64,000 nucleotides of DNA, taken from positions 168,073-232,072 of the forward strand of contig CAWJKV010000007.1 in NCBI GenBank assembly GCA_963843555.1, in the 5' to 3' direction. Below the pieces are notes generated by a model that searched no databases, had not been told where the DNA came from, and saw only the letters and a program-made list of their open reading frames with translations. This stretch comes from an uncultured Methanosarcinales archaeon. GTDB lineage: Archaea; Halobacteriota; Methanosarcinia; Methanotrichales; Methanotrichaceae. Positions 1-17,612 of this stretch are shown in pieces; the stretch's first letter is position 1; every line of letters starts with the position of its first letter. The translations under genes were made by a program, and so were the position numbers.

Positions 1-1734
1 TAAAGAACCAGGTACTATCTTCTCCTTCATCAGCACTGAACGTGCCAGCATGCCCCCGGAGATGTTCTTGGCTTTGAAACCATTCTGCAGAAGTATGCGC
101 GTCGCATAGTAGGCGCGCTGGCCGGAGCGGCAAAATACCAGTATATCGCGGTCTTTGGGCAGTTCGCCAAGGCGCATTCGGAGTTCATCCAGCGGTATGT
201 TGCATGCGCCCGGCACATTCTCTACGGTGATCTCCTCGGGATGACGCACATCGAGCAGGAACCCGTCCTCTCCGGAATTCCAGTGGCGAAGCGGCATATC
301 TCCCCGGAGTACATCGGCTGCAACCATCCCGGCGAAGTTAATGGCAGACTTGGCCATTCCGAACTGGGGCGCATAGCAAAGCTCAGATTCTTCCAGGTCA
401 TAAACCGTCAAGCCCATCTGGATGGCCATGGCAATGACATCGATCCGTTTGTCCACTCCCTCCAGACCCAGTGCCTGTGCCCCGAGAACGCGTCCGTCTG
501 ATTTCCGGAAAATCACTTTCATCGCCACCATCTTAGCATCCGGGTAATACCCTGCATGGGCATTGGGGAAGATGTAGATCTTTTCATAGTCCTTCTGGCC
601 GAGCCGGATGAGCTGATTTTCGCTAATTCCTGTCCAGGCCACTGCACCTTCAAATACTCCGACGATTGAGGTTCCCTGGCTTCCGCGGAAACGGGAGTCA
701 CGCCCTGAGATCACATCGGCAGCGATTCGGCCCTCCCGGTTTGCCGGGCCTGCCAGCGGGATCAAAGACGATTCACCAGTCACAAAATCTTTGATCTCAA
801 CTGCGTCTCCAACAGCAAAAATGTCCGGATTGCTGGTGCGCATGTGTTCATCCACGAGTATTCCTCCACGCTCACCGATTGTGATTCCGGCCATCTTTGC
901 AAGGGCAGTCTCCGGACGCACGCCAATTGCCAGTATCACAATATCCGCAGGATGGGCCTTGCCGGATTTTGTGAGAACCTGGAGCGATCCGTCAGGAGAT
1001 TTCTGGAATCCTGCGGCCCCATCGTTGAGTGCGAGCCGAACACCGTTCTTCTGAAGGTATCGATCAACGAAGCGCGACATCTCCGGATCAAGCCGCGGCA
1101 AGAGCTGCTCATGCTTATGGACAATCGTCACCTCAAGCCCTTGATGCATCAAGTTTTCAGCCATCTCGATGCCGATGAACCCTCCACCGATCACCACCCC
1201 GCGCATTGGTCTCTTCACTACCTGATATCCAGTGTACGAATTCATCCCGGCTTGTTCCTGTTTATATTGTTCAATCCAGGCGCGTATCTCCCGAGCATCA
1301 GGCACGTACCTCACCCTAAAGATTCCCGGAAGATCGATACCGGGCAAATCCGGACGGACCGGAGCAGCACCGGGAGCCAATACGAGCTTATCATAGGATT
1401 CAGTGCTAACTTCGCCGGTCTTGACATTCTTCAGCTGCACTGTTTTCTGCGCTGCCGAGATCCCGACCACCTCACAGAGTGTCCGCACATCAATGGAAAA
1501 CTGCTCATGGAACAGCTTTTCATCGGCTACCAGGAGGCTTGATTCTTTTTCGATCACCCCTCCGCAATAGTAGGGCAATCCGCAATTGGCGAACGAAACA
1601 TAGGTCCCTCGTTCCACCATGAGGATTTCTGCATTCTCATCCAGCCTGCGCAATCGTGCCGCACACGACGCACCACCGGCCACTCCGCCAACTATGACTA
1701 CCTTCTTTCCCGTCTTCTTACCAACTGGTTCCAT
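1..1734 (-). CDS. CoA-disulfide reductase / NAD(P)H persulfide reductase family FAD oxidoreductase with C-terminal rhodanese domain (3' end runs off window)
   Basis: Not in the ORF track because there is no stop inside the window. Manual translation from ATG 1734 gives MEPVGKKTGKKVVIVGGVAGGASCAARLRRLDE...SFANCGLPYY...PLAGPANREGRIAAD...FCRSGQRAYYA; the start and the C-terminal rhodanese segment are in the same frame. Confidence 0.9.
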   Translation of the reverse strand, partial: MEPVGKKTGKKVVIVGGVAGGASCAARLRRLDENAEILMVERGTYVSFANCGLPYYCGGVIEKESSLLVADEKLFHEQFSIDVRTLCEVVGISAAQKTVQLKNVKTGEVSTESYDKLVLAPGAAPVRPDLPGIDLPGIFRVRYVPDAREIRAWIEQYKQEQAGMNSYTGYQVVKRPMRGVVIGGGFIGIEMAENLMHQGLEVTIVHKHEQLLPRLDPEMSRFVDRYLQKNGVRLALNDGAAGFQKSPDGSLQVLTKSGKAHPADIVILAIGVRPETALAKMAGITIGERGGILVDEHMRTSNPDIFAVGDAVEIKDFVTGESSLIPLAGPANREGRIAADVISGRDSRFRGSQGTSIVGVFEGAVAWTGISENQLIRLGQKDYEKIYIFPNAHAGYYPDAKMVAMKVIFRKSDGRVLGAQALGLEGVDKRIDVIAMAIQMGLTVYDLEESELCYAPQFGMAKSAINFAGMVAADVLRGDMPLRHWNSGEDGFLLDVRHPEEITVENVPGACNIPLDELRMRLGELPKDRDILVFCRSGQRAYYATRILLQNGFKAKNISGGMLARSVLMKEKIVPGSL

Positions 1735-1748
1735 GGTTGATCCCTCCT

Positions 1749-2795
1749 TTAGACCTCATTAAACTGGATGATCACTTTGATGTCGCCGGGTTGTCTCACG
1801 AGAGCCTGCTGGAAATTCTCCGGCTTCTCACGGCGGGTGATCAGGCGGTTCAGCCATGTCCGGTCCGATGCAGCCAGATTCTGACCCGCTCTATACCAGT
1901 GACGCTTGTTTGCATTCACGCTGCCGACAATCAGGTTATTCTTCAGGACCACTGCTTTTGCGATGTCGCCCACAGCCCGACTTTGGACGCCGCCGGAGCC
2001 GACGCCCGTGAGACAGATGATCCCGCCCGATGCAACTTTCTGGATCGCGTCCCCAATCACCGATCCCACACCGGTGCACTCGACGATGATATCTGGATCG
2101 AAATCCAGATCCAGGACACTCCCGGTATGATACGTCGCCCCCAGGGCATTGACGAGATCTGGCTTTGGTCCGGTGTCATTGCGATCGAGCACGTGGACAT
2201 CAATGTTATTCGCTTTCAAACGGAGCGTCGCCAACATACCAATCGGCCCTGCGCCGGTCACCAGCGCGGTCCTGGGCTCCCAGAAGGCGCGTTGGCCAGC
2301 TCGTAAGACCTGTTCCAATGCCTTGGTGATCACCGTCATCGGTTCGAGCAGCACGCCGAGGATGCCCAGGGAAGAGTCCACCTTGATGGCGTATTCGGGT
2401 TCGATCCGCCAGCGTTCCGACATAAATCCGTGGATTTCTTTGATTCCGCGCTCGGTGTACTGGCCGTTGGTGCACATGTCCCACTCGCCCACCGCACAGT
2501 TGGGGCAGGGAACAGGGTCCGGACGGCGGACGATGCCGACCACCAGGTCGCCCTTTTTGAAAGAACTGCGTGGCCCCGGATCGATGACGCGGCCGAGGGA
2601 CTCGTGACCCAGCACCAGCCGGGACTTTCCAGGCGGCGCCCAGCCGTAATTCCCCGAGACGATGTCGACGTCCGTCCCGCAGACGCCGACAGCCACGGCT
2701 TCAACAAGGATCGAGCCCTCACTCTCATCGGGCTCCGGGAAATCCTCGTAGCGTGCTGACCCTGGCTTCATAGGTTCTACAGTGATTGCTTTCAT
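1749..2795 (-). CDS. Zn-dependent glucose 1-dehydrogenase (medium-chain dehydrogenase family)
   Basis: GVCGTD, LVLGHESLG, VRRP-x-CPNC-x7-C, GAGPIG and GSVN motifs typical of archaeal-type GDH. Confidence 0.88.
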   Translation of the reverse strand: MKAITVEPMKPGSARYEDFPEPDESEGSILVEAVAVGVCGTDVDIVSGNYGWAPPGKSRLVLGHESLGRVIDPGPRSSFKKGDLVVGIVRRPDPVPCPNCAVGEWDMCTNGQYTERGIKEIHGFMSERWRIEPEYAIKVDSSLGILGVLLEPMTVITKALEQVLRAGQRAFWEPRTALVTGAGPIGMLATLRLKANNIDVHVLDRNDTGPKPDLVNALGATYHTGSVLDLDFDPDIIVECTGVGSVIGDAIQKVASGGIICLTGVGSGGVQSRAVGDIAKAVVLKNNLIVGSVNANKRHWYRAGQNLAASDRTWLNRLITRREKPENFQQALVRQPGDIKVIIQFNEV

Positions 2796-2848: not shown

Positions 2849-3955
2849 TCAAGCACTTGATAGTTGGATACAAACCGGCGTTGGCACTGCGGCCACGTGC
2901 CCGGTTGCCTGCAGCATCCCGGAATCCTGATCGATCCAGAATGTGACCACGGTGTCCGTATCCTGGTTTGCCACAAGCATCAGTGCACCTGATGGATCGA
3001 TGATGAAAGCGCGGGGACCTGCTCCCTGCGTCAATTCATGCCCGACAACCGACAACAGGCCGGTCTCGGGGTCGACGGCATAGATCACCAGGCTATCATG
3101 CCCCCGATTTGAGGCGTAGACAAAGCGACCGGAAGGCGCAACCATGATCTCCCCGCCCAGGTTCTGGCCTGTGAAGTCGTAGGGGATGGTGGAAATGGTC
3201 TGTAACGCCTCAAATGTGCCCTGATGCTCCTGGTAGCGGCAAACTGTGACCGTGGATTGTAGTTCGCTGATGACGTAGGCGAAGGGTCGGTGTGGATGAA
3301 ATGCCAGATGGCGCGGGCCTGTGCCGGGCGGCAGCTCTGTCCAGGGAGGATCGGCAGGGCTTAGCGTGCCCCGCTCCCTATCGAGGCAAAACGCCATCAG
3401 CCTGTCCGTGCCCAGGTCAACCGCCAGTATGAAGCCGCCATCGGGGCTTGGCACAACCATATGGGCATGCGGGCTTTCCTGACGTTCGGGATTGGGCCCG
3501 GAACCGGAAAACTGAACTGTATCGGTTGCCTCTCCCAGGCTCCCGTCCTTTAGGATCGGCAAAACGCATATGTTGCCTGTCTCATAGTTGGCCACCAGGC
3601 AATAGCGTCCTGCAGGATCAATGCTTGCGTAGCAGGGAGCCGTGCCATGGGTTGATTGTTCATTCAGGTAGCTCAGATGCCCTGTTACCGGATCGATGGC
3701 AAAGACGCTCAAAGTCCCGTTAGGGGCTTCGCTTTTATAGAATTCGTTGACGGCGTACAGACGGTTTCTGTCCGGCCCCAGGATCAGAAACGAGGGATTG
3801 ACCGTTCCGGCACCGGCTACAGTGGCGGCGTAGGTCAACTCACCTGAACTCAGATCCAGGTGATAGATGTAGATACCTTCGGCTTTGCCGTCAACAAATG
3901 ACTCGCGCCGTGTATATGTTCCAATGTAGGTGATGATGCGATCTGAACTTACCAT
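2849..3955 (-). CDS. pgl: 6-phosphogluconolactonase (beta-propeller lactonase)
   Basis: YIGTYT, NPSF, LVANY, RQESPHAH, GPRHLAFHP, YASNRGHDS motifs. Confidence 0.92.
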   Translation of the reverse strand: MVSSDRIITYIGTYTRRESFVDGKAEGIYIYHLDLSSGELTYAATVAGAGTVNPSFLILGPDRNRLYAVNEFYKSEAPNGTLSVFAIDPVTGHLSYLNEQSTHGTAPCYASIDPAGRYCLVANYETGNICVLPILKDGSLGEATDTVQFSGSGPNPERQESPHAHMVVPSPDGGFILAVDLGTDRLMAFCLDRERGTLSPADPPWTELPPGTGPRHLAFHPHRPFAYVISELQSTVTVCRYQEHQGTFEALQTISTIPYDFTGQNLGGEIMVAPSGRFVYASNRGHDSLVIYAVDPETGLLSVVGHELTQGAGPRAFIIDPSGALMLVANQDTDTVVTFWIDQDSGMLQATGHVAAVPTPVCIQLSSA

Positions 3956-4001: not shown

Positions 4002-4937
4002 TCAGATGGGGTGAATCCTGCTCGTTCTCCTCTCATTGGCTATGTATTCGGACTTTCCATATGGATGTCCGCCAAATCCATGGCGAATTATGGCTATTGC
4101 TCTGGCTGCATCGCTATCCTTATTTCTGGACCTGAAAAGCTCAATGACCGATTGGGTAATTACCGGCAGAGGAATCTCTTTTTCGATACCTTCCTGAACC
4201 AGCCAGTTGACCTCTCCTGTGTCCTCGATGTAGTCAGGAACTTCTTTAAGATCCTTGAAGTCTCCCAGACCCTTTTCCATCAACTCCACCAGCCAGCTCC
4301 TTATAACTGATCCATGTGACCAGACTCCAAAGATGTCACGCATATTCAGGTCGAAATCGGCGTGTTGCAGAAGCTCTACCCCTTCGCCTATGGCCTGAAG
4401 CATTCCAAACTCAATTCCGTTGTGCACCAGCTTAACAAAATGCCCGCTCCCCGGTTTTCCCGTGTGCAGATAACCTCCTTCAACTGCCAGAGCCTTCAAG
4501 ATCGGCTCGCAGATCACAGCTGCTTCGGGCCTTCCACCAATCATGAAACAGGCTCCGTGACGTGCACCATCAATTCCACCACTGGTGCCGCAATCAACGA
4601 AATAGATACCTTGCTTCGAGATCTCCTCTTCTCTGCGGATGGAATCTTTGTAGTAGGAGTTGCCTCCATCCAGGATGACATCACCTTTCTCCAGGTGGGG
4701 AATTAGCTCTTTCAAAACCAGGTCAACTGTAGGTCCTGCTGGAAGAGATAGAAATATGACTCTAGGGTGGCTTAAATTTGCCAAAAAATTTGTGTAATCC
4801 TCTACTACTAATACCCCATTTTGGGTCAATTCAGGCTTTTGTCCCCTCGCCTTTCCCACGATCTTGATGCCCTTTTCCACACCGTGGAGGGCGATGTTCG
4901 CACCCATTTTGCCAAGACCGATAATTCCAAGTTCCAT
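4002..4937 (-). CDS. gnd: 6-phosphogluconate dehydrogenase (decarboxylating), short YqeC-like form
   Basis: GLGKMG, DGGNS, DCGTSGG, GHFVKLVHNGIEFG, RHGFGGH. Confidence 0.92.
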   Translation of the reverse strand: MELGIIGLGKMGANIALHGVEKGIKIVGKARGQKPELTQNGVLVVEDYTNFLANLSHPRVIFLSLPAGPTVDLVLKELIPHLEKGDVILDGGNSYYKDSIRREEEISKQGIYFVDCGTSGGIDGARHGACFMIGGRPEAAVICEPILKALAVEGGYLHTGKPGSGHFVKLVHNGIEFGMLQAIGEGVELLQHADFDLNMRDIFGVWSHGSVIRSWLVELMEKGLGDFKDLKEVPDYIEDTGEVNWLVQEGIEKEIPLPVITQSVIELFRSRNKDSDAARAIAIIRHGFGGHPYGKSEYIANERRTSRIHPI

Positions 4938-5004
4938 CTCCAGTACATCCAGATATTATCAAATGTTGATATTTCTGGTAATTTATAGATATTTGAGATG
5001 CAAT

Positions 5005-5028
5005 CATAAAAGTATGAATAGTTATGAA
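5005..5028 (-). promoter_or_regulatory. 24-bp operator-like motif, copy 1 (upstream of gnd operon)
   Basis: TTCATAACTATTCATACTTTTATG on the minus strand; TATAAAT begins after a 17-bp gap, at 4987. Confidence 0.8.
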
Positions 5029-5137
5029 GGCTCCAACGCTCCTGGGAGACAGGCTCATTGGGGCTGGCTTTATTGGTTTCCAAAGACCGCTGGAATCACC
5101 ATCATACGGCAAAGACATCCGCGATTTCGTTAATTAG

Positions 5138-5758
5138 CTATGCCTCCTTATCGCCAGTGAGATGGGGAGAGAAAGAGTAGTATAATTGCGCCGCAATATA
5201 CCCGGCAAGAGCGATCTTTGGAGAGATTAATGCAAGGATCATTGCAAAGCCAGTAATAGCGGCGGCAAATTGCCGCCTCCTCTTCAAAGCATTAAGCTCG
5301 CCTCTTGCCGATTCATCGACGAGGATATGGGGAGTGGTGACTGCTGAACGTATGATTGTGTTCATCATAGCCGATGCCGCCAGTAGATTTAAACCGTAGA
5401 TTACCACCGGGAAAGCTGAATAGAGGCTATTGATGTGAGTAGCCATGAACTTCGTAGTGAATGGAAGCAGCGACACGAAGAACAGCATTAAAAGAGTAAA
5501 TCGGTATGTCCGGGGGGTCTCTTGTTTGGTCAAATAGGTAATTTCAGAATGCGCCAGCCAAAAGCTACCGATAAATGCAAAGCTAATGATGTACGCGATG
5601 AAATCAGGCCATAATGGCATGAGCGCTGTAATATCTTCGGATACCTCTGGTATAGGAAGATCGAGCACCAGTAATGTGATGACTATTGCAAACACGCCAT
5701 CGGCGAATGCATCTAAACGACCTTTGGGCAGGGATTTAATCATTGTTATCAACCTCAC
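5138..5758 (-). CDS. TMEM175 family (DUF1211) potassium channel, copy 1
   Basis: RLDAFADGVFAIVITLLVLDL, FW-x-x-H and LLPFTT; 6 TM helices; start may be at MIKS (5743). Confidence 0.9.
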   Translation of the reverse strand: MRLITMIKSLPKGRLDAFADGVFAIVITLLVLDLPIPEVSEDITALMPLWPDFIAYIISFAFIGSFWLAHSEITYLTKQETPRTYRFTLLMLFFVSLLPFTTKFMATHINSLYSAFPVVIYGLNLLAASAMMNTIIRSAVTTPHILVDESARGELNALKRRRQFAAAITGFAMILALISPKIALAGYIAAQLYYSFSPHLTGDKEA

Positions 5759-5817
5759 ACTAGAACCTGCTTCTTCCTTCTGGCTTTTGCCCTCTCGCCT
5801 TTCCCATCTTCATCCCT

Positions 5818-7083
5818 TCATCTATCTTTTGCATCAGCTCCGGTCGTGACTGTGGCGAACTGCCGTGTCCCTCCGTCGCGGTCCGAGAGGGCGCTGATCA
5901 GGATCGTTTCCTCCGGTCTGGGCGTGTCTGGCAGTTGGACGTGCACGATCACGCTCGCCGATTCGCTGGGATTCAGAACTGGTGTCCGTCCCGGGATAAG
6001 GCTGGCTGACCAGGGCGGAGGAGCCGAAGGCCAGGTGAAGTCCTCGGCCATCAGGGCGTAATCGGTAGGCTGCGTGTCCTGGTTGGTCACCGTGACGCTG
6101 TATGATACCACGCTGCCAGGTGATCCCTGGCCCGTCTGGTTGGCCGGGCTGAGGTCGATCCCAGGATCTGACTGTAGCACGACTTGAGGATCGTCGCCCT
6201 GCTCAGGTCCCCACACCTCTCGCCAGGGACCCGAATCGGGTTTCAGGTACAGGTCAAAGAAAGTCAACATCTCGCGGCGCGCGATCTCCAATTGTTCCGC
6301 ACGCGGCAGCGAGCCTGAGTCGCAGAATGGGATGTTGCTGTCCAGGAAGCCACAGTGACACCCTCCCTGGATGAGCAATAATTGGCGCGGTGGCCGGGCC
6401 ACGGTGTACATCGCCTGCGTGTTGGTCTGCCAGTCCACGATGTCGTCCTGATCGCCCGTAATCAGCCGCACTGGCGCGCTGATGTTCGGCATTTGGGCGA
6501 TGGCCGAGGGATTGGTCTCGGCAGCAGCCAGCGTGATCAGAGCCCGCACGCGCGAGTCGGCTGCCGCGGCCAGGATGCTCGAGCCGCCGCCCATCGAATG
6601 ACCGGCTATGCCAAAATGGGCGGTGTCCACCTGCCCGAAGAGCCATGAATCGGGATTCGCGTTCTCCGACTCCAAAAAGTCAAGGCTGTAGCGAAAGTCT
6701 TCTGCGAATCCCTGGTGGCTGGGGAACAAGAAGGTCATGTACGACATGGGAGCGATCACCAGGTAGCCATGGGATGCCAGGTGTTCCAAGGTGCTGCGGT
6801 AGGAGTTCGGATGCACCGTGAAGCCGTGGCCGAAGGTTACAGCCGGATAGGGTGCGCTGCTGCCATTGTACGGCGCGCCGTCGCCTGCGGTCGTGGCGGG
6901 ATAGTACAACTGGGATGTGAAGGTCTGGCCGTTGGGGCGGAGAATGGTCACGACCTGAAGGCCAGCGCCAAAGGGACCTGGATCGGCCAGATCGGCGTCT
7001 ACGGCTGTGCTCTGCCCCAGCACCCCCAGCAGCAAGGTGAGCAAGCAGGTCGTAGAAATCCAAACCGAGTTGTGCGTGGACAT
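5818..7083 (-). CDS. Secreted alpha/beta hydrolase (chlorophyllase/cutinase-like) with C-terminal Ig-like domain
   Basis: Signal peptide; HGF oxyanion motif, HLASHGY, GHSMGGG nucleophile elbow, GDQD Asp, GGCH His; beta-rich C-terminus. Confidence 0.85.
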   Translation of the reverse strand: MSTHNSVWISTTCLLTLLLGVLGQSTAVDADLADPGPFGAGLQVVTILRPNGQTFTSQLYYPATTAGDGAPYNGSSAPYPAVTFGHGFTVHPNSYRSTLEHLASHGYLVIAPMSYMTFLFPSHQGFAEDFRYSLDFLESENANPDSWLFGQVDTAHFGIAGHSMGGGSSILAAAADSRVRALITLAAAETNPSAIAQMPNISAPVRLITGDQDDIVDWQTNTQAMYTVARPPRQLLLIQGGCHCGFLDSNIPFCDSGSLPRAEQLEIARREMLTFFDLYLKPDSGPWREVWGPEQGDDPQVVLQSDPGIDLSPANQTGQGSPGSVVSYSVTVTNQDTQPTDYALMAEDFTWPSAPPPWSASLIPGRTPVLNPSESASVIVHVQLPDTPRPEETILISALSDRDGGTRQFATVTTGADAKDR

Positions 7084-7338
7084 GGAGTCACCTAGAACTT
7101 GTTATTGAAGGCAGTAAAGACCAGATTTGATACTGGAAGTACTTCAGAGCTATTCTGACTTGCATTGTCATGACTGGTTGGTTTAGTGAATTGGTACTTA
7201 ATGGATTCTCTTGCGAGAGGGATTTGGCGGATAAAGTAGTCTTGCCGAGGTTATCTCTGACAAACTCGTCAAAGCTGGACATGCCAATGTTAATGAAGGA
7301 TCGCCCATGAAGTTGTATGAAGAGCTAAACGCGAATCT

Positions 7339-8397
7339 TCAAAATCCGGACAATGATGTTGTCATCAACTCTTGGTCCCCCTTTACGCTCACCTGAATGG
7401 AAGAGCTTCGTTTTAACATCTCCTTCATCCAAATAGAATCCTTCACCATGCCTGCCCTGCTTACCGGATCATAATACTCAAACGACCACGATCCATTATT
7501 CTGGGAGGCATTTACGGCTACAGCGCAAGCCCTCCACCGGAAAAGCACAACCTTTGGGTCAGAATCAGCGAGATGCAAAGCCTCTTTCAGATCCGAAGCT
7601 GAATTTGGATCTCCAGAGTCCCGTTCTACATGCAGTCGAGGGTAAGAAGCAATGTATGACATATTGTTGCTGAGAGAGTTGTAGCTATAGACCTGGAAAC
7701 TGCTTTCATTCTTGTTCAGAATATTCCATTGAAAAAGGCTCCAATCGGGAAAGATCTCAAAATCTCCTTTAAGGTTTCCCGCAATATTTCCATGATTTTC
7801 GAGAGCAAGAGCCCTCTCTTTTCCCTCCACTCGCGCGCCTCCGACCACCAATATCATGATCAGAAACAGCACTAAGAGCTTGTTATTTGTGTTTCGGGAA
7901 ACGGATTTCCTTCCAAAGAAACCTCTGATTAACCACAGGGCTATGCACACGCTGGACACCAAGATTATGATCTCATAATGGAAGAGCAGCTCCGCTGAGA
8001 ATCTTGCTGTATCCAAGGGATAAAGCAGGGGCACTCCCTTAGTGATGAGATAATCCAGGAATAGGTGCATAAGGACTCCGGCGAACGCCAGAGCTGCCAC
8101 TGGCCAGGAGAGGCTGAAATCAATTCCAGTCCAGCGCATGAAGATGTCTCTGGCCGGTGGTCGCGAGATCAGGAGCATAGCTACCAGAGCTGTCAAGGAA
8201 CCGAATATCAATGAATGGGTTATCCCCCGATGTACCAGGAGAAGATCTGGCGAGGGAAAGATTATTGCGAGCCAGATGATGAAGACATCCAGGTCCGGGG
8301 CCACTCCTCCGATTACAAAGGCCGCTAGCAGCTTTCTATCCAACTTGAAGGAGCTTCCCAAAAGATACGGCAACACCGCATGAGAAATTATGTCCAT
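7339..8397 (-). CDS. Membrane-bound metal-dependent hydrolase (YdjM-like)
   Basis: MDIISH, PDLD, HRGITHS, HLFLD motifs. Confidence 0.85.
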   Translation of the reverse strand: MDIISHAVLPYLLGSSFKLDRKLLAAFVIGGVAPDLDVFIIWLAIIFPSPDLLLVHRGITHSLIFGSLTALVAMLLISRPPARDIFMRWTGIDFSLSWPVAALAFAGVLMHLFLDYLITKGVPLLYPLDTARFSAELLFHYEIIILVSSVCIALWLIRGFFGRKSVSRNTNNKLLVLFLIMILVVGGARVEGKERALALENHGNIAGNLKGDFEIFPDWSLFQWNILNKNESSFQVYSYNSLSNNMSYIASYPRLHVERDSGDPNSASDLKEALHLADSDPKVVLFRWRACAVAVNASQNNGSWSFEYYDPVSRAGMVKDSIWMKEMLKRSSSIQVSVKGDQELMTTSLSGF

Positions 8398-8813
8398 TCA
8401 ATTCTCTGGGCTTGATATCTCTTAATCATTCATTTTCCGATTGATGGATTAATTTCCGCTATACCTTTCAAATAACATCTTGGATACATATAAATGCTTT
8501 GCAGTAGCAGTCAACTTTTCGGCATCCACTTGAATCGCTTCCTATGACTTGGCCGGGGACTGGCTCGCTTCACGCAAAAGTCGTCACTTATGTCAAGCGG
8601 TCACGGCTCGTTTAAGCCTTTCTAATGCGAATACTGTCGCTTAAAAGGAGATGATGGTCCAAGTAAAATCCCTCATTTGAGTTTTTCGAAACATTTATTT
8701 ACCATTACTCAGATACCCAAACTCTAGCATTATCGTCAGATTGGCAAGCAATCAACTGGATAGACTGAGGGAATATGCGACGAAAACGGTTTCTGAGATG
8801 GAGTTGAATCGCG

Positions 8814-9899
8814 ATGACGGTAACCTCTGATATGATGATAGTATACGCCGTAATCATAAGTCGCTTCTTGTTGCCTCTTGCCATTCCGCGATTTCCTCTT
8901 CCTGCAGTCGTGGCCTGCATGCTGTTGGATGCAGCAGACTACCAAATTTTCAACTTCTTCACAAGTCTGCCTATTGAAAGCCTGGAATTCTATCAAGGCT
9001 ATGATAAATCTCTTGATATCTATTATTTGGGCATAGCCTATATTTCCACGCTTCGCAATTGGACAAATCCCTTCGCGTTCAAGCTTGACAAGTTCCTCTT
9101 CTTTTACCGTCTTGTAGGTGTGGCCCTCTTCGAGCTGACTCAGATTAGAGCAGTTCTGCTCATCTTTCCCAACACCTTCGAGTATTTCTTTATCGCAATC
9201 GAGGCCTTCCGCATGAGGCAAGACCCACGGAAGCTCACCAAGAGATTATTGATTATCATTGCAGCATTCATCTGGATCTACATCAAGCTCCCACAGGAGT
9301 TATGGATTCATATCATCCAGCCAAATTACCCCGATCTGATCACTGATAATCCATGGACTATATTGGTTGCAGCAGTATGGTTTGCAGGAATAGCAGCATT
9401 TGCATGGTGGCTGCTGAAAGAGAAGCAGGCCGGTAGGCAGGTTTCATTCAAGGCGGATCCCATTCCCCAGGATTTAGCATTAAAAGCCGAGCAAAGAGGC
9501 ACGACTTCGAAGTCCAATCGCTTCCTCGATGCAGCGCTCATAGAAAAGATTGCAATGATCTCGCTTCTCAGCGTTATCTTTGCCCAGGTACTCCCGGATG
9601 TAAAGGCCAGCGGCATCCAGATCGCCATCGGAGTGGCTTTATTAGTGATAGTTAACACTGCACTCAGCCACTGGCTTTCCAGGCGCGGGACTGAGTGGAA
9701 GTCCATTTTACAGGAGTTCGTCGTCATGGCGCTGGTGAATTTCAGCCTGATCCTGGCAGCTGACTTTCTGCTGCCCAGATTCGATGGCTCAATCAATCTT
9801 AGCACCGCGTTGTTCTTTGTCCTGCTCCTGACTCTGAATGTTACCCTCTATGACAGATATCACCAGATATATGTGCACCGATTTGCAGACAGTGGATAG
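8814..9899 (+). CDS. Polytopic membrane protein of unknown function
   Basis: 361 aa, about 10 hydrophobic segments, RBS-like GGAG upstream. Confidence 0.75.
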   Translation: MTVTSDMMIVYAVIISRFLLPLAIPRFPLPAVVACMLLDAADYQIFNFFTSLPIESLEFYQGYDKSLDIYYLGIAYISTLRNWTNPFAFKLDKFLFFYRLVGVALFELTQIRAVLLIFPNTFEYFFIAIEAFRMRQDPRKLTKRLLIIIAAFIWIYIKLPQELWIHIIQPNYPDLITDNPWTILVAAVWFAGIAAFAWWLLKEKQAGRQVSFKADPIPQDLALKAEQRGTTSKSNRFLDAALIEKIAMISLLSVIFAQVLPDVKASGIQIAIGVALLVIVNTALSHWLSRRGTEWKSILQEFVVMALVNFSLILAADFLLPRFDGSINLSTALFFVLLLTLNVTLYDRYHQIYVHRFADSG

Positions 9900-10131
9900 T
9901 TGAGGTTGCGACGGCGGACGGCGGAACCCTCTGCAAGCTACGGGATAGTCCTTAAGTTCGATTTCCCTGACCAACCCAGCCTGCAGTTCGAACTACCCTC
10001 CCAGTAAGGTCGTTATTATTTGCGATTATGATTCCGATAATGGCGGTTCCTAATCCCATCGTAACCTTGGCGGATGAGTTGCGCTCATGTGCTCGGTAGT
10101 ATACGATTTACAGCAACATGACACGCTACCG

Positions 10132-10155
10132 TTCATAACTTATCATACTTCTATG
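10132..10155 (+). promoter_or_regulatory. 24-bp operator-like motif, copy 2 (upstream of crystallin gene)
   Basis: TTCATAACTTATCATACTTCTATG (21/24 to copy 1); TATTAATT at 10173 after a 17-bp gap. Confidence 0.7.
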
Positions 10156-10215
10156 ATTCTTTCTTAAATAAGTATTAATTTGATGGAATTCCAATAAGTC
10201 TGATTAGGTGATAAA

Positions 10216-10584
10216 ATGAAATTCACTGGAAAAATAGCCATGGGAATACTAATCGCCGCAGTTGCGCTAATTGCGGTTGGCATCGCCCAAAACGAGACTG
10301 CAACAGAGATTCCCGAAGCAATAGTATTTTCAGGTACTATGATGGAGGGTAATCACAGACATGTCTTTATGAGTATACCAGATTTGACTGTTGGCTCAAA
10401 TGAGTGGAACGATGACATCTCATCGATTGTAGTCATTTCCGGGGAATGGACTTTCTTTGAGGCTCCTCTAGGCGCCGGGGAAGTGCCAAATCCATCCGTT
10501 ACATTGGGGCCCGGAGTTTATCCTGATGTAGCGAAAGAGAAAATACCGGACAATTCTATCTCACAAATCCGTTTAGAAGCCTAG
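10216..10584 (+). CDS. Secreted single-domain beta/gamma-crystallin family protein
   Basis: Signal peptide; Greek-key motifs WNDDISSIVVISGEWTFFE and LGPGVY...DNSISQIR. Confidence 0.8.
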   Translation: MKFTGKIAMGILIAAVALIAVGIAQNETATEIPEAIVFSGTMMEGNHRHVFMSIPDLTVGSNEWNDDISSIVVISGEWTFFEAPLGAGEVPNPSVTLGPGVYPDVAKEKIPDNSISQIRLEA

Positions 10585-10879
10585 ACGAAAAAAGCAGGTA
10601 AGGCCTAAGCAGGATCCTTGGGGTCCAGGCTTTATCTGTTCTATCCTTTTTCCTTTGAGAGTGTAATAGAAAGCATCGATGAATCCTGATTCGCACCCAA
10701 AACTATGAAAACGATTTCAGGGAAACATATTTTGATATGGTTGAAGGCTGCTGAATAGCTAGGGATCTGGATCCCATCATAAAAGTAGCCCGACTCTCTC
10801 TTGAGCGTTGACTGAGCAATAAACAAGATCAAGAATCGGGCCTTCTCACCATTGCCACCACTCTGTCTCCAGATTTTAG

Positions 10880-11159
10880 CGATTTAATCTTTCTTCTGTT
10901 TCTGCGACTTTCTTTTGAGTCATGGCAAGGCGTTTTTAAAGGCTCATTCTCGGCATGAGCCTGTCCGAGCAGCCTCTCAACTCCGCAATCCTTGCCTCGT
11001 ACTTGTACCTCTTGCCATTGCCGCTAAACGCTTTTTCGGGATTCTCGCCCAATTCATCTCTTGAAGTCCCGGTCATAGCGCCGCCTCGTCTTCTTCATGT
11101 ACTTCCCTCCATGAGTTGATGTTACTTAACTCATTTTCCACTGGGCGGGGTTCACTCCA
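10880..11159 (-). mobile_element. IS3-family insertion sequence remnant (left end plus decayed orfA)
   Basis: Terminal TGGAGTGAACCCC at 11159; orfA starts at 11098 with MKKTRRRYDRDFK, then an internal deletion, then ENPEKAFSGNGK...EARIAEL/ERLLGQAHAENE across a frameshift; the far boundary is approximate. Confidence 0.75.
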
Positions 11160-11728
11160 AAGGAGTAGTATAATTGCGCCGCAACATACCCGGCAAGAGC
11201 GATTCTTGGAGAGAATAACGCAAAGATTATCGCACAGCCAGTAATAACGGCGGCAATTTGCCGCCTCCGCTTCAAAGCATTAAGCTCGCCTCTTGCCGAC
11301 TCATCGACGAGGATATCGGGAGTGCTGACTGCTGAACGTATGATCGTGTTCATCATAGCCGATGCTGCCAGTAGATCTAACCCGTAGATTATTACCGGGA
11401 AAGCTGGATAGGGGCCATCGATGTGAGTAGCCATGAACTTCGTAGTGAATGGAAGCAGCGACACGAAGAACAGCATTAAAAGAGTAAATCGGTACGAACG
11501 GGGGGTTTCTTGTTTGGTCAAATAGGTGATTGAAGAATGCGCTAGCCAAAAACTACCGATAAATGCAAAGCTTATGATGTAAGCGAAGAAATCAGGCCAT
11601 AATGGCATAAGCGCTGTAAAATCTTCGGATGCCTCTGGTATGGGTAGATCGAGCACCAGTAACGTGATGACTATCGCAAACACGCCATCAGCGAATGCAT
11701 CTAAACGACCTTTGGAAAGGGATTTCAT
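11126..11728 (-). CDS. TMEM175 family potassium channel, copy 2 (last codons supplied by the IS end)
   Basis: Closely similar to 5138-5758 in DNA and protein; likely start is MKSLSKGRLDAFAD at 11728. Confidence 0.88.
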   Translation of the reverse strand: MKSLSKGRLDAFADGVFAIVITLLVLDLPIPEASEDFTALMPLWPDFFAYIISFAFIGSFWLAHSSITYLTKQETPRSYRFTLLMLFFVSLLPFTTKFMATHIDGPYPAFPVIIYGLDLLAASAMMNTIIRSAVSTPDILVDESARGELNALKRRRQIAAVITGCAIIFALFSPRIALAGYVAAQLYYSFGVNPAQWKMS

Positions 11729-11918
11729 TATGTTATCCACTTCAATGAGCAATAGGCCGGAGGCTGTACCTTTTGGCATGGGAATTCCAGTGCAATCATC
11801 TTTGCATGACTCATCTCATCCCTCCCAAACAATGGTCACAATTGTAAGCGTCACAAACAATGCTTGGGCAGCTCCCAGCAATGCCAGGAGTGCCAAGATC
11901 GTCATGATAAATGACAGC

Positions 11919-12440
11919 CTACTTCTTCTTTTTTGCCTCTGCGAGCGCTGCACCCATCAAGATTATCGCTTCAGGTTGAAGCAGACCCTGCGAGATCAAG
12001 ACCCCGTTCGAGTTTCGAAGAGCTTCTTTTATGCCCTTTGCCCATAAATGCTCAACGAGCATTATAAGCGCGGAGCTATTATTGGGGATCTTGTCTGCCC
12101 CTAAATTCAAGATATCGTCTATTGAATAACCAAAGCTCCCATCAGCCGCCAATTCTGCACCAGCCTCTGCACCGGCTTTCGCCCCTTCAATCCCGCCTGC
12201 GCCCAAACCAAGAAGTGCACCAACCGCGGCCCCCAGTTTAATAACCTCATCTTTTCCTAAATCTGTGCCTTCAATAGAGGTGATATTTCCTTTCGCATCC
12301 TTTGTTACGAAAAGGTAGTCAATTAAACGAATGACGCCCTTCTTCTTGGCATCATTTAGAGCTGGAAGGATCTCTCCACTGAACTTGTTACCAGGAAACC
12401 CGATAACAAACATCTGTATTGGTCCATACATCACTGTCAT
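11919..12440 (-). CDS. DUF6325/DUF1269-like protein
   Basis: GPIQMFVIGF, IRLID, Gly/Ala-zipper segment, SSALIMLVEHLWA. Confidence 0.8.
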   Translation of the reverse strand: MTVMYGPIQMFVIGFPGNKFSGEILPALNDAKKKGVIRLIDYLFVTKDAKGNITSIEGTDLGKDEVIKLGAAVGALLGLGAGGIEGAKAGAEAGAELAADGSFGYSIDDILNLGADKIPNNSSALIMLVEHLWAKGIKEALRNSNGVLISQGLLQPEAIILMGAALAEAKKKK

Positions 12441-12521
12441 GATTCATTCCTCTTATTTCTAATTCCACTAATAACAATTATACAAGCTTTTTTTGAGATA
12501 TATAGCTTTTTGAGATTCCTG

Positions 12522-12545
12522 CATAAAAGTATGAATAGTTATGAA
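12522..12545 (-). promoter_or_regulatory. 24-bp operator-like motif, copy 3 (upstream of DUF6325-TMEM175)
   Basis: Identical 24/24 to copy 1; TATATAT at 12504 after a 17-bp gap. Confidence 0.8.
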
Positions 12546-12640
12546 GCATGAGGCAATAAGATCATATTTAACAGGACGATCGGAGACCTGAAGATCACCG
12601 GCTGGCTGACATCTTTTATATGATCGGCATGCTGTAGACC

Positions 12641-12664
12641 TTCATAATTATTCATACTATTATG
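12641..12664 (+). promoter_or_regulatory. 24-bp operator-like motif, copy 4 (upstream of arylsulfatase)
   Basis: TTCATAATTATTCATACTATTATG (22/24); degenerate TATA (TCTATCTA) after a 17-bp gap. Confidence 0.78.
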
Positions 12665-12774
12665 AAAGCATCTCAAAAATCTCTATCTACTTCAGTAGTT
12701 AACATTGAAATCCTATTAGAATCATGTCCAAAGAATACGAAAAAATTTGAAATAAAGATGCAAGGAGAATCACA

Positions 12775-15141
12775 ATGGCAACAATCAAGACTTATAAAGA
12801 CGGAGCGCCGTTCACCGGCGTTATCGGACGTACCATAGAGGAATCCTCGCCTGCCTGGCCGGAGCCCCCGCGCTCCGCAGCAGGTGCGCCCAATGTCATC
12901 TTCTTCGTGCTGGATGATGTCGGCTACGGGCAGTTGTCGAGCTTCGGCGGGCTGGTCGAGACTCCCGTGCTTGACAGCCTGGCCAAAAGAGGCCTGCGTT
13001 ATACCAACATGCATACCACGGCTCTCTGCTCTCCGTCCCGAGGTTGCATCCTGACCGGCCGGAATCACCACTCGCTCGGGCTTGCATCAATCACCGAGAC
13101 CTCCACCGGCTACCCCGGCTACAACGGAATCATGCCTTTCGATAAGGGCATGCTCAGCGAGATGCTGCTGCAAAAGGGCTACAATACCTTCTTTGCAGGG
13201 AAGTGGCATCTCTCGCCTCCTGAACACGAGACGCCGGCCGGCCCCTATGATCGCTGGCCGCTTGGCCGTGGCTTCGAGCGTTTCTACGGCTTCCTGGGTG
13301 GCGACACAAATCAGTGGTACCCGGAACTGGTCTACGACAATCACTCGGTCGAGCAGCCCTCGCAGCCTGAGGAAGGTTACCACCTGAGCATCGACCTGGC
13401 TGATAAAGCCATCCAGTTCATTATGGATGCGCATGTCAACGCGCCGGACAAACCTTTCTTCCTGGAATACTCAACAGGCGCCGGTCATGCGCCGCATCAC
13501 GTTCCAAAAGAGTGGGCAGACAAGTACAGGGGTAAGTTCGACATGGGCTGGGACGAGTACCGCAAGATCGTCCACCAGCGCCAGATTGAGATGGGTATCG
13601 TTCCCAAAGGGACCGAACTTTCTCCGCATGACCCAGATATTCCCGTCTGGGATACGCTATCACCAGATGCGAAAAGACTCTTTGCCCGAATGATGGAGGT
13701 CTTTGCTGGATTTGTAAGCTTCACCGATCATCATTTTGGGCGCGTCGTCAAATTCCTCGAAGAGATCGGCGAGCTGGAGAACACTCTGATCATCGTCATC
13801 TCCGACAACGGTGCCAGCGCTGAAGGTGGCCTGGTCGGATCGCTCAATGAGATGTGCTTCTTTAACAATGTGGCTGAATCGGTTGAGGATAACCTCAAGA
13901 TGATCGACAAGCTGGGCGGGGTGGAGCTTTTCAATCACTATGCCTGGGGCTGGACAAATGCAGGTAACACACCGTTCCGCCGCTGGAAACGTGAGACCTA
14001 CCGGGGCGGCAGCACCGATCCCTGTATAGTCTTCTGGCCTAAAGGTATAAAGGCCAGGGGAGAGGTGCGCTTGCAGTATGCGCATATCATCGACCTTGTC
14101 CCAACGGTCCTGGAGGCACTTGGTCTGGAAGCTCCGACCAACATCCGGGGCGTGGCCCAGGCACCTATTGAAGGCGTAAGTTTTGCCCATACCTTTAACG
14201 ACAATGCTGCGCCCAGCCATCACCACACCCAGTACTTTGAGATGTTCGGTCACCGCTCCATCTACCATGACGGCTGGCGGGCGGTCTGCCCGTGGCCAGG
14301 CACGAGTTTCGTCGAGGCCGCCAAGAAGGGCCGTCATTTCGGCTCTGTCATCACTAACGAAGTTCTATTGGATATCGAACAAAACGACTGGGAGCTATAC
14401 AACGTGGCCGAAGACTATTCCGAATCCCACAACCTGGCCGCCACGCACCGCAATAAATTGATTGAAATGATAGGTCGATGGTATACTGAAGCGGGCAAGT
14501 ACAATGTGATGCCGATAGACGGCAGTGTCATCCAGCGTTTAACTGTGGAACGTCCGACGATATCCAGACCAAGGGACAGGTTTGTCTTCTACCAGAACGG
14601 GTCTCCAGTTCCATTTGCTGCAGCGCCCAAGACATACAACCGCCCATGGTCGATCACAGCCGAAGTAGTGGTCCCAGAGGGTGGCGCCGAGGGCGTTCTA
14701 ATCGCCCAGGGCGGCCGGACTGGCGGATACACCTTCTTCGTGAAGGATAAGCGACTCCACTTCCTTTACAATTTCCTCAACCGCGATAAATTCTGGCTGC
14801 ATTCCAACGAGATGGTTCCTGAGGGTGAAGTCGAACTCCGCTACGAGTTCGAGCCTACCGGAAAACCGGATTTTGCGAAAGGGAAAGGTGTGCCGGCCCG
14901 AGGTCAGCTTTACATCAACCGCAAGCTGGCTGCAAACATCGACATGCCCCATACAGTTCCAATCATGTTCGGGACAGAAGGCCTGACCTGCGGCTACGAT
15001 GGCGGCGCTCCCGTTGCCCCAGAGGAGTACAGCGATACATTCCCCTTCACAGGGACTATCAGCCGGGTCACCCTGGACCTATCAGGAGAGTTGATCAAGG
15101 ATGCTGAAGCCGATCTGAAGGTGGCAATGGCCCGGCAGTAA
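12775..15141 (+). CDS. Arylsulfatase (Cys-type type I sulfatase, AtsA-like long form)
   Basis: LDDVGY, ALCSPSR-x3-LTGRNHH formylglycine signature, GKWH, SDNG; no signal peptide. Confidence 0.95.
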   Translation: MATIKTYKDGAPFTGVIGRTIEESSPAWPEPPRSAAGAPNVIFFVLDDVGYGQLSSFGGLVETPVLDSLAKRGLRYTNMHTTALCSPSRGCILTGRNHHSLGLASITETSTGYPGYNGIMPFDKGMLSEMLLQKGYNTFFAGKWHLSPPEHETPAGPYDRWPLGRGFERFYGFLGGDTNQWYPELVYDNHSVEQPSQPEEGYHLSIDLADKAIQFIMDAHVNAPDKPFFLEYSTGAGHAPHHVPKEWADKYRGKFDMGWDEYRKIVHQRQIEMGIVPKGTELSPHDPDIPVWDTLSPDAKRLFARMMEVFAGFVSFTDHHFGRVVKFLEEIGELENTLIIVISDNGASAEGGLVGSLNEMCFFNNVAESVEDNLKMIDKLGGVELFNHYAWGWTNAGNTPFRRWKRETYRGGSTDPCIVFWPKGIKARGEVRLQYAHIIDLVPTVLEALGLEAPTNIRGVAQAPIEGVSFAHTFNDNAAPSHHHTQYFEMFGHRSIYHDGWRAVCPWPGTSFVEAAKKGRHFGSVITNEVLLDIEQNDWELYNVAEDYSESHNLAATHRNKLIEMIGRWYTEAGKYNVMPIDGSVIQRLTVERPTISRPRDRFVFYQNGSPVPFAAAPKTYNRPWSITAEVVVPEGGAEGVLIAQGGRTGGYTFFVKDKRLHFLYNFLNRDKFWLHSNEMVPEGEVELRYEFEPTGKPDFAKGKGVPARGQLYINRKLAANIDMPHTVPIMFGTEGLTCGYDGGAPVAPEEYSDTFPFTGTISRVTLDLSGELIKDAEADLKVAMARQ

Positions 15142-15332
15142 GTCGCTTGAGAGGTACCAAGAAGCATAGGCCTGTATGTCATCCAAAGTGGTCGTCGAAG
15201 GATAGCCGTATCGAATCCTGCGCCTGAATAATCCCCACCAGGTAATTGTGGAAGCCTGGTGGGGGCGCCTTCATTATAAGGAGGCTCGGCCGATATCGTA
15301 TGTTATTATTCCGAATTATGCTTCCAAGGCGC

Positions 15333-15810
15333 ATGAGAAAAACTGAGAAATTTGTACCGGGGATAGGACTCATTCGCGGCTATAACCGAGGTTGGCTTAA
15401 GACCGACACGGCCGCAGCAGTCACTGTTTTCGCCATTCTCGTCCCTTCGGCTCTGGCCTATGGTGAGCTGGCCGTTTCGAGCCGGTGATAGGACTGTATG
15501 CAGTTCTGGCCGCCATGGTCGCATATGCGCTCTTTGGCAGTTCAAGGCAGGTCATCATTGGGCCTGAGGCGACAACTGCTATCCTGGTGGCAACTATAGT
15601 CTGGCCGTTGGCTGGCGGAGATGTTGCCCGTTATGCCGCCCTGGAGGCGGCTCTGGCCATATCCATCGACTTCTTATGTCTTCTTGCGGGCCACTACAAG
15701 ATCAGTTTTGTGGCAGATTTTCTCTCAAAGCCCATCCTCACAGGTACATAACCGGGACCGCCCTGATAGTAATCGCCAGCCAGTTGGGCAAGCTTTTCGG
15801 CATCTCAAGA
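15333..15810 (+). pseudogene. Truncated, frameshifted N-terminal fragment of a SulP transporter
   Basis: LVPSALAYGELA / GLYA...YALFGSSRQVIIGP...DFLSKPILTG / IASQLGKLFG spread over three frames, ending before the convergent gene. Confidence 0.8.
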
Positions 15811-15902
15811 ATGCTGAGCATCAAGGACAGACCATGCCTGATTCCTGGCCACAACGTTTTGGCCTATACACCCACCCGGCATTCATAGCTCCTGATGTAG
15901 CT

Positions 15903-17612
15903 TCAGCGATATTCTGCCAAATAGGCATCAGCTCCCTCGCGTACCGAAATGTAGAAATGGTCGGCACCGATGACCTTCTCCAGCCCAGATTTTCGAAGGT
16001 ATTCCCGCACATCCTTGTTCATGCGAGAAAAGCGCAGTTCGACATTTGATCTGACCAGTTCGCCATGAAGCTTCTCCAGCATATCAAGGGCAGTGGTATC
16101 GATGTCAGAAACGGATTCAAGATCGACGAGCACCATTCGGACAGTCGGATCCTCTGCCACAAGTGATCTAACTCTATCCCGGAAATTGGGGGCATTGGCA
16201 AAGAACAGCAAGCCGTCAAATCGCAGGATAAGCAGGCCGGGATAAGTTTCGACCCCGGAGTAGTTATCAATATTCCTGAAAACGTCTTTACCGGGAACTT
16301 TTCCCAGGATCACGGTTGATGGCGCTTTGATCCTTCGTAGCAGCTGTAGAAGCGATAGAAGCACAGCAAACACCAGTCCAGGAAGTATGCCGAGCACCAG
16401 CACACCCAGCAAGGCCACAGACGCGGCCAGATAATCGTCAAACCGGATTCTATGGAGACGGGAGAGCTTCGAGAAGTCGATCAAATGCCACACGGCATGA
16501 ATGACTATAGCGCCGAGCGTGGCTTCAGGAAGGTTTTGAAATAGTGGTGTGAGGGCAACAATAGTGATCACCACCATTGCTGCAAAAATAATAGAGGACA
16601 TCTGGCTCTTGACCCCTGCCTGGTCGGCGGCCGATGAACGGGACATGCTGCCATCGACCACAAATCCCTGACTGAGGCCTGCTCCAAGGTTGGCAAAGCC
16701 AAGGGCAACCATCTCCTGGTTGGAATCCACCTCATATCCGTGGTTGGTGGCATAAGACCGTGCAATAGCCACCGATTCCGAAAATGCCACCAGCACGATT
16801 CCGGCAGCTCCTGGCAAAAGCATTACCAGTTCTGAAAATGTAATACCTGATGGCAGTCCGAATGAAGGCAGTCCTGTTGGGATGTATCCCACGACCTGAA
16901 CCCCATGCGCCTCTAAATTTAAGAGAGATGACGCCAATATGCTCAGCACCATGACTGCCAGAGCAGCCGGTATTTTCGGAACGAATTTGTGGATGGCAAA
17001 GAGCAGGACCAGGCTGATAATGCCAACGGAAAGTGTTGGAATATGGGCCAGGCCCAGGTCACGGATGAAGAACCATAGCTCTTGAAAAAAGCCTGCACTT
17101 TCAACGCTGTAACCGAGCATTTTGTCCAGCTGGCCGGCCACAATGGTCAAAGCCAGCCCTATTATAAAGCCGGTCAGGACCGGATTGGACATGAAATCGA
17201 CCAGAACTCCAAAGCGCAGCAGCCCGGATGCGACCAAAAGGACTCCGACCAGAATAGCCAGTACAGCTGCCAGGATGACAAACCGCTCCGGGTCGCCGGT
17301 CGCCACTGGAGCCAACACCAGCGCAGACATGATGGCCACAGTGGAACTGGGACCAACTGTCATGTGACGTGAGGTGCCGAAGATGGCATAGCCGAGCGCA
17401 GCCAGCGGAGCGGCATAGAGTCCTGCTTCAGGCGGAACTCCCGCGAGCGATGCATAAGCCATTCCTTCCGGCACGAACATCGCCCAAACCGTCAGAGCAG
17501 CCACCAAATCCCAGCGCAGCCAGGATCTGTCGTATCTTGGCAGCCAACTTAGAATAGGAAGAAAGGATTTGATTGATGACCTGGGTCGATGATTTTGTGG
17601 CTTTTCGGACAT
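15903..17612 (-). CDS. SulP/SLC26 anion transporter with STAS domain
   Basis: PEGMAYA, GLYAA, FGTSRH, DSNQE and LFFANA...DIDTTA STAS motifs. Confidence 0.95.
   Translation of the reverse strand: MSEKPQNHRPRSSIKSFLPILSWLPRYDRSWLRWDLVAALTVWAMFVPEGMAYASLAGVPPEAGLYAAPLAALGYAIFGTSRHMTVGPSSTVAIMSALVLAPVATGDPERFVILAAVLAILVGVLLVASGLLRFGVLVDFMSNPVLTGFIIGLALTIVAGQLDKMLGYSVESAGFFQELWFFIRDLGLAHIPTLSVGIISLVLLFAIHKFVPKIPAALAVMVLSILASSLLNLEAHGVQVVGYIPTGLPSFGLPSGITFSELVMLLPGAAGIVLVAFSESVAIARSYATNHGYEVDSNQEMVALGFANLGAGLSQGFVVDGSMSRSSAADQAGVKSQMSSIIFAAMVVITIVALTPLFQNLPEATLGAIVIHAVWHLIDFSKLSRLHRIRFDDYLAASVALLGVLVLGILPGLVFAVLLSLLQLLRRIKAPSTVILGKVPGKDVFRNIDNYSGVETYPGLLILRFDGLLFFANAPNFRDRVRSLVAEDPTVRMVLVDLESVSDIDTTALDMLEKLHGELVRSNVELRFSRMNKDVREYLRKSGLEKVIGADHFYISVREGADAYLAEYR

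Follow-up and report, generated by a model that had tools for sequence, protein, structure and literature searches.

We analysed a 24-bp operator-like element that occurs four times in a stretch of 64,000 nt from an uncultured Methanosarcinales archaeon of the family Methanotrichaceae. This stretch, called the window below, corresponds to C7:168073-232072 of the source assembly G000, which is 2.68 Mb long and 82% complete. The sites lie at 5005..5028 (-), 10132..10155 (+), 12522..12545 (-) and 12641..12664 (+), on the coordinates and strands given in the initial annotation. They have 0, 3, 0 and 2 mismatches, respectively, and matches were found in none of 100 dinucleotide shuffles. Each site is oriented towards a gene start, and Pfam and NCBIfam models support the identities previously proposed for the targets. 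The first site, identical to the third, precedes a minus-strand operon coding for a gnd-type 6-phosphogluconate dehydrogenase (4002..4937; TIGR00872, above cut-off), a pgl-type lactonase (2849..3955; PF10282), a glucose dehydrogenase (1749..2795; PF16912) and a cdr-like pyridine-nucleotide disulphide reductase with a rhodanese domain (1..1734, its stop being 6 nt beyond the window). The second precedes the gene of a beta/gamma-crystallin-domain protein with a hydrophobic N-terminus (10216..10584, +). The third and fourth are divergent: one faces the genes of a DUF6325/DUF1269-like protein (11919..12440, -) and a TMEM175-type channel (11126..11779, -), the other that of an arylsulfatase-family protein (12775..15141, +; PF00884). 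An orthologous divergent pair is present at locus L040.

An A/T box follows each site after 17 nt, as described earlier. Its reading can be refined: compared with the tRNA promoters of G000, the core is better read as a TFB recognition element (BRE), cTCAAATA, followed by a TATA box, xCTATAAA. The BRE begins 7 nt after the end of the operator. In the four promoters, this weak BRE (with a pyrimidine at -6) and the TATA box occupy positions 4982..4997 (-), 10163..10178 (+), 12499..12514 (-) and, with a TATA-like box, 12672..12687 (+). The proposed architecture, a palindrome with an additional half-site one turn upstream at a fixed distance from the BRE/TATA, was borne out. We call N4 the operator with a 4-nt palindrome spacer and N5 a sister operator with a 5-nt spacer. 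A conservation profile of 52 N4 sites, kept from a raw set of 82 once sites with shared flanks had been removed, peaks at TCATAA (positions 2-7), TCATA (11-16) and TTTATGA (19-25), and then at cTCAAATA and xTATAAAT; conservation in the 6-nt spacer and on either flank is close to 0-0.4 bits. The three TCATA(A) half-sites are on one face of the helix, two of them in direct orientation 10 bp apart and one inverted.

A matrix built from the four sites of the window, and no others, was run over G000 at a threshold of at least 22 bits; it yielded 20 sites, the next score being ~17, and none in each of six locally shuffled genomes. Two of the 20, C2:262935 and C7:57263, are devoid of a core and were excluded. 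The set therefore comprises 18 promoters with a downstream core rather than the four initially proposed. The core is at offset 0 in 17 of the 18 sites, with a core matrix derived from sites whose search pattern required a core. Used alone, this matrix gave 20 matches of at least 17 bits in G000, 17 of them with an operator, a figure that is circular for the training sites. Start codons are located 45-180 nt downstream of the 16 sites checked. In agreement with the idea that the targets are accessory genes, 15 of the 18 sites are inside a 46-kb accessory island (C7:134.6-180.7 kb), which is partly of low GC content (46% at 130-158 kb vs 51.5%). The binomial p value for this clustering, 3e-24, is overstated because the island boundaries were set after the fact.

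The gnd-pgl-gdh-cdr operon and the crystallin gene of the window belong to the same candidate regulon as many other direct N4 targets. These include three DUF1269 genes and genes coding for a DUF6325-like protein, a USP, a CMD protein (followed by a SHOCT protein gene), a DUF2173 protein, an uncharacterised 107-aa protein, a member of the bile-acid-symporter family, GH63/glycogen-debranching proteins and three sulfatases. HSP20, ABC1 kinase and squalene/phytoene synthase genes are co-directional neighbours of targets. The two tetraether synthase (Tes) genes found in the G000 assembly are both N4 targets (C7:145624 and C2:2942); they are identified by sequence, with NF045702 scores of 645-648 bits vs a cut-off of 450.

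Several features of the island and of related genes were recorded alongside. At C5:195571 (-), C5:122.3 kb and C5:236089 (+), a HEAT-repeat gene, a DUF6325-like gene and a crystallin paralogue, respectively, have kept the spacer and core and lost the operator; their orthologues elsewhere have it, a visible instance of site turnover. A 40-bp remnant of an insertion-sequence end lies between two divergent operators (C7:145469-145511), with many copies in genome G057. The GH63/MGH-like glycosidase genes (C7:158691-166128) form two sets, each split in two open reading frames, and correspond to a single 907-aa gene in genome G005. A cluster without N4 sites (C14:22286-32899) includes genes for a protein paralogous to the 107-aa island protein, for a small membrane protein, for a repeat protein rich in alanine and lysine, and for one of 2925 aa; we tentatively take these genes to resemble general-stress genes and a cyclic-glucan synthase gene. 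In the window, a secreted alpha/beta hydrolase gene (5818-7083, -) with PETase/chlorophyllase-like matches has a high GC content within the low-GC island, and a fragmented SulP-type transporter gene (15246-16049, +) is convergent with an intact SulP-STAS gene (15903-17612).

The BREs of the N4 promoters depart from the host consensus. A purine precedes AAA (position -6) in none of the 18 N4 sites vs 149 of 227 other promoter-like matches, the figure for coding DNA being 72 of 136. Most loci of two target families do not have the operator: 27 of 30 DUF1269 loci score below 0 and mostly carry canonical GAAAAG/GAAAG BREs, and 46 of 51 tetraether-synthase windows also score below 0 (some are duplicates, and starts were approximated). 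A promoter class served by an alternative TFB was rejected, as a single TFB gene and no paralogue is found in each of the five genomes tested, including G000, G005 and genome G076. The operator is thus placed as an activator site would be, just upstream of the BRE/TATA at a conserved distance and next to a BRE that is off consensus. Because of this invariant position and the weak BRE, we are fairly confident that the control exerted through the operator is activation of transcription. An activator bound to the 24-bp element would recruit TFB to a deliberately weak BRE.

Among 301 genomes of the class, the N4 form is found in three, all of the family Methanotrichaceae, namely G000, G005 (97% complete; five sites) and G076 (68% complete; one site, before a tetraether-synthase gene). 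An exact-pattern search of genome contigs returned two stretches, one of them genuine, and the matches at G038:C75 and L038, without a core, were discarded as chance occurrences. A metagenome scan gave 47 stretches representing 45 loci, all with an N4 site. Together with two G005 loci, they contain 62 distinct sites, of which 8 are near a contig end and 10 have no match within 900 nt. Each of the other 44 faces a gene with a G000 homologue, which is an island gene or tetraether synthase in 34 cases. Gene order is reshuffled among these loci, and orthologous promoters have retained the sites at protein identities of 60-96%. In a tree of 26 rows, the motif-bearing tetraether synthases are on one side of a 99/98 branch, including the G017 copy, the promoter of which has a decayed N4 site (22.6 bits). 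The motif-bearing DUF1269 copies (29 rows) require at least two changes.

These data bear on a different origin of the repeated sites, which might be mobile-element ends, belong to a promoter cassette that was duplicated or form an RNA element. The identity of two window copies, the insertion-sequence remnant that abuts one site and the clustering of sites in one island are compatible with such an origin, but the sequences around the sites are not. Flank identity across the 18 genome sites averages 25% upstream and 30% downstream; the flanks are unrelated, and therefore the element is not a mobile repeat. The spacers are likewise unrelated, each site points to a gene and precedes the TATA box of that gene, and the characteristics of insertion-sequence ends or miniature inverted-repeat transposable elements (common flanks, inverted ends, a transposase and placement independent of gene starts) are lacking. 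In addition, a search of viral contigs with the N4 element gave no match, nor did an Rfam scan of window positions 4500-13200, and conservation at orthologous promoters also argues against this origin. We regard it as extremely improbable, and the initial view that the copies are not mobile-element ends stands.

A search with the island DNA against five genomes matched operator-plus-core in G035 and G075, and both matches were glnA promoters with one extra base. The corresponding N5 pattern, TCATA-N5-TATGA, is present in 65 of 100 genomes of the family vs none of 101 genomes of other families, and reversed-pattern controls gave 0. The glnA gene is downstream in 27 of 30 fetched N5 loci, and 27 sites are at the same distance from the core as in N4 (tallies among fetched loci, 52 N4 and 28 N5, are pattern-selected). 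The N4 and N5 matrices correlate with r = 0.91 after deletion of one column, a value reached by none of 100000 column shuffles. In both, the inverted half-site and the weak BRE are equally far apart, and the pyrimidine at -6 is found in 27 of 27 N5 sites, although this is partly forced by the search pattern. Thus, the half-sites, the core and the distance are shared, whereas the 5-nt spacer is not: all 17 accessory sites of G000 have 4 nt. N4 had been presented as a stand-alone novelty of accessory genes; it is instead the 4-nt-spacer form of a family-wide ammonium-assimilation operator.

A palindrome scan of five other genomes gave 46 strand matches vs 10 for the control. These genomes provided 22 distinct loci, where 10 of 17 N5 sites precede amtB, glnA or glutamate-synthase genes, with two further sites ambiguous, vs 0 of 5 N4 sites. 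Additional promoters with N5 palindromes occur among 12 regions that were fetched. G000 itself has related palindromes or arrays at each of its two amtB genes, at a glutamate-synthase-like gene, more weakly at nifH, and at a formate/nitrite transporter gene, the last preceded by four 10-bp TCA(T/C)A repeats (C12:74390-74450, +). One N4 palindrome is found before gltB1. In a spacer-neutral scan of G000, the N5 form was found once, at glnA, and the N4 form 17 times, each time at an accessory gene. We propose that the N5 operator would be the control that Methanotrichaceae exert on the glnA, amtB and glutamate-synthase promoters and that, in a few lineages, an accessory island may have placed ~18 stress, dormancy and membrane-lipid promoters, including those of tetraether synthase, under this operator family.

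The initial annotation had placed the regulator outside the window, and indeed no DNA-binding gene is found in the island or in the 45 metagenome loci. We identified a 182-aa CopG-type ribbon-helix-helix (RHH) protein (C16:27592-28140), with an N-terminal RHH_1 domain (PF01402), that is present in 69 of 74 genomes of the family and in none of 76 others. It is single-copy in G000 and G005, also when the RHH domain alone is the query. Its C-terminal domain is weakly V4R/H-NOX-like according to a model of low confidence (pLDDT 68; Foldseek E ~0.004). Among 12 regions selected since contig positions suggested linkage, its gene lies immediately behind the glnA-glt operon in two genomes, G014 and G002, and a few genes away in G036, and a second copy sits between nifH and amtB in G019 and G020; in G005, the gene is not linked. 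A GGAA-N6-TTCC box lies upstream of the RHH gene in 18 of the 20 loci examined (out of 30 fetched). NrpR-type boxes are present at the RHH and glutamate-synthase promoters, and none is found at N4 sites. The gene at C5:113934 is presumably NrpR-like, judging from its sequence. On these grounds, we slightly favour the RHH protein as the binder of N5. That the same protein also reads N4 is conceivable, at somewhat less than even odds. In the resulting cascade, nitrogen limitation would release NrpR, which would allow synthesis of the RHH protein and, in turn, action on its targets.

Other regulator candidates were rejected, as their distribution does not follow that of N4. A divergent HTH_45-like protein (C4:143815) is present in 36 of 105 genomes. 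An RHH-like protein (C5:168726) is found in 92 of 105 genomes with no operator-like site upstream, and the likeness of the 107-aa island protein to its C-terminus failed a profile search. A CxxCG zinc-finger/winged helix-turn-helix (wHTH) protein (C10:85192; 94 of 105 genomes) adjoins CMD/SOD-like genes and has no nitrogen link. A wHTH protein (C10:33487) occurs in 47 of 66 genomes, C5:26307 in 4 of 5 but not in G005, and a wHTH-HisKA fusion (C15:40958) in G080 and G057 but not in G005. The latter (C15:40958-43036, -) is 692 aa long and combines two winged-helix domains with a HisKA-like segment, in which the phospho-accepting His is apparently replaced by Tyr, followed by REC domains. The closest G000 copies of the HTH_45 gene of the G005 island are 44-48% identical. 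G005 also codes for a Csa3-type CARF-wHTH regulator (TIGR01884; C46:252-896; loci L145 and L294), beside HdeD-like and DUF2173 genes and with no cas gene within 12 kb; it was set aside, as G000 has only a frameshifted fragment (C14:84936-85044). Small Sso10a-like winged-helix HTH_45 proteins are expanded in G000 and its relatives, with 8-19 matches per genome in five genomes, and several share upstream motifs of their own.

The nature of the candidate also raises the opposite mode of action, a repressor operator on which a protein would nucleate at the three half-sites and spread over the BRE. The available excerpts of the literature describe most RHH proteins as repressors, which weighs against our interpretation, and report that they commonly repress by spreading towards the BRE/TATA (PMC5569661). 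The TCAAA at 33-37 resembles a fourth half-site, highly conserved and in helical phase two turns on, and arrays of 3-4 repeats are found at the formate/nitrite transporter promoter. On the other hand, a repressor would need neither an invariant distance to the core nor a uniformly weak BRE, and an NrpR-controlled RHH protein, if it is the binder, would be synthesised in nitrogen-limited cells, in which glnA and amtB have to be expressed. We therefore consider repression improbable.

The island also encodes a protein of 1194 aa composed of PAS domains only (eight stretches). Its last PAS domain and conserved helical tail (~25 residues) are found in 2 of 105 genomes of the family, G000 and G005, which are exactly the two with many N4 sites. 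The protein adjoins an N4 site in 5 of the 45 metagenome loci, and eight database homologues of 656-2090 aa are likewise PAS-only. In its own promoter, a reversed half-site overlies the TATA box in all five copies with usable upstream sequence. A second PAS-only copy, 71% identical, is located off the island beside an insertion-sequence fragment (C17:11596-14460, +). The island PAS protein might act as a second input at N4 promoters, through protein contact, a role that we put forward with reserve.

Taken as a whole, the explanation that the element is an activator site, that it is the N4 form of a nitrogen operator and that the RHH protein is its likeliest reader has a probability of about 0.5 in our estimation. 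Several observations weigh against it. In G000, the N4/N5 split by target class is near-absolute, which a single shared reader would be expected to blur, and none of the 44 metagenome and G005 N4 sites with an assigned target has a nitrogen-assimilation gene downstream. The island targets look like general stress genes rather than nitrogen scavengers. The RHH protein is present in genera without an N5 match (g4, g8 and g10), and common descent is enough to give family-restricted genes profiles of this kind. Finally, G000 is 82% complete, and therefore a dedicated regulator could be missing from the assembly.

Such a regulator, an unseen N4 activator that travels with the island and responds to a signal other than nitrogen, for example redox state, oxygen or energy state, is the principal alternative; the likeness to N5 would then reflect common descent of the proteins. 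It would account for the strict partition by target class, the stress-type targets and the decay of N4 where the PAS protein is not found, at the tetraether-synthase promoter of G017, and the reversed half-site in the PAS promoter hints at a closed feedback loop. However, neither the island nor the 45 metagenome loci offer a DNA-binding gene, six tested candidates do not co-occur with N4, and G005 is 97% complete with one RHH copy. The comparison of regulators between G000 and G005 covered the HTH_20, TrmB, HTH_45 and REC lists. We hold a dedicated activator to be less probable than reading by the RHH protein, and whether it would be a paralogue of the N5 reader or a partner dependent on the PAS protein is a suggestion of similarly limited weight.

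If N4 is read by the RHH protein, this activator and the PAS protein might form an AND gate, in which ~18 promoters, including those of every tetraether-synthase gene of G000, would require both the NrpR-controlled activator and the island co-activator as a result of a one-base change in operator spacing. We consider this gate unlikely. If true, it would have been built by gene transfer, it would provide glycerol dialkyl glycerol tetraether (GDGT) synthesis with a regulator, and it would be the first case of a DNA target for an archaeal PAS protein that lacks an output domain. Most archaeal PAS-rich signalling proteins have no DNA-binding domain, and their route to DNA is called open (PMC5847659); the regulation of GDGT formation is similarly named as open (PMC8941075, in part). 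Our findings bring to both questions a candidate protein, together with a DNA sequence and its list of targets. N5 itself would be the nitrogen-regulon operator of a major family of acetoclastic methanogens, and it is testable in cultured members because this form is family-wide. The pair also represents a natural case in which one base of operator spacing separates a core from an accessory regulon.

The motif had not been recognised as a described site, and we found no description of N4 or N5 in the literature, where motifs shown only as logos or published in subscription journals would escape notice; the consulted part of the FilR1 paper (PMC3991700) gives no motif in its text. The kind of system is known, and the comparisons below, drawn from those parts of the cited papers that were available, suggest that the sequences of both forms are undescribed. 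In Pyrococcus furiosus, TFB-RF1 (PF1088) binds a palindrome at a conserved distance upstream of a weak BRE/TATA and activates by TFB recruitment (PMC5937170). N4 and N5 share this layout: a weak BRE and TATA box closely follow the palindrome at a fixed distance. In contrast with the TFB-RF1 site, TCTG-N5-CAGA, which serves two operons and has no extra direct half-site, they consist of TCATA-N4/5-TATGA with three half-sites, and N4 has ~18 targets. EarA binds several 6-bp sites directly upstream of the weak BRE of the Methanococcus maripaludis fla promoter (PMC5512572), likewise a methanogen promoter in which repeated sites directly precede a weak BRE; the likeness concerns the layout, and EarA controls the archaellum operon only, through four sites.

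In Methanosarcina mazei and Methanococcus, the NrpR repressor has a secondary activator, NrpA, under its control, and the available passages call NrpA nif-specific (PMC9765008, PMC11456600); systems of this kind are also described in PMC6801745 and PMC4902934. GGAA-N6-TTCC, the NrpR operator (PMC2723118), also precedes the RHH gene and a glutamate-synthase promoter here, which recalls this arrangement. Our candidate, by contrast with the nif-specific NrpA, belongs to the RHH proteins, and the element extends to glnA, amtB and glt promoters. The N4/N5 sequence matches neither the NrpR operator nor the TFB-RF1 site in the texts consulted. A search for TCATA-N4/5-TATGA with at most one mismatch in eight nifH upstream regions of genus g21 of family f3 found none. 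We take this genus to be Methanosarcina. NrpA is reportedly a CxxCG zinc-finger protein.

With respect to the proteins, RHH dimers bind repeated subsites cooperatively and the archaeal AvtR can activate, according to the excerpts available (PMC5569661). The candidate shares an N-terminal RHH_1 domain with AvtR and other CopG/Arc/MetJ-type regulators and differs from them by its putative, weakly supported V4R/H-NOX-like C-terminal domain. Archaeal REC-(PAS)n and PAS/GAF proteins without an output domain have been proposed to act by protein-protein contact (PMC5847659, in part). Unlike the REC-(PAS)n proteins, the island PAS protein has no REC or kinase domain; it ends in a helical tail of ~25 residues and is tied to a DNA motif by co-occurrence.

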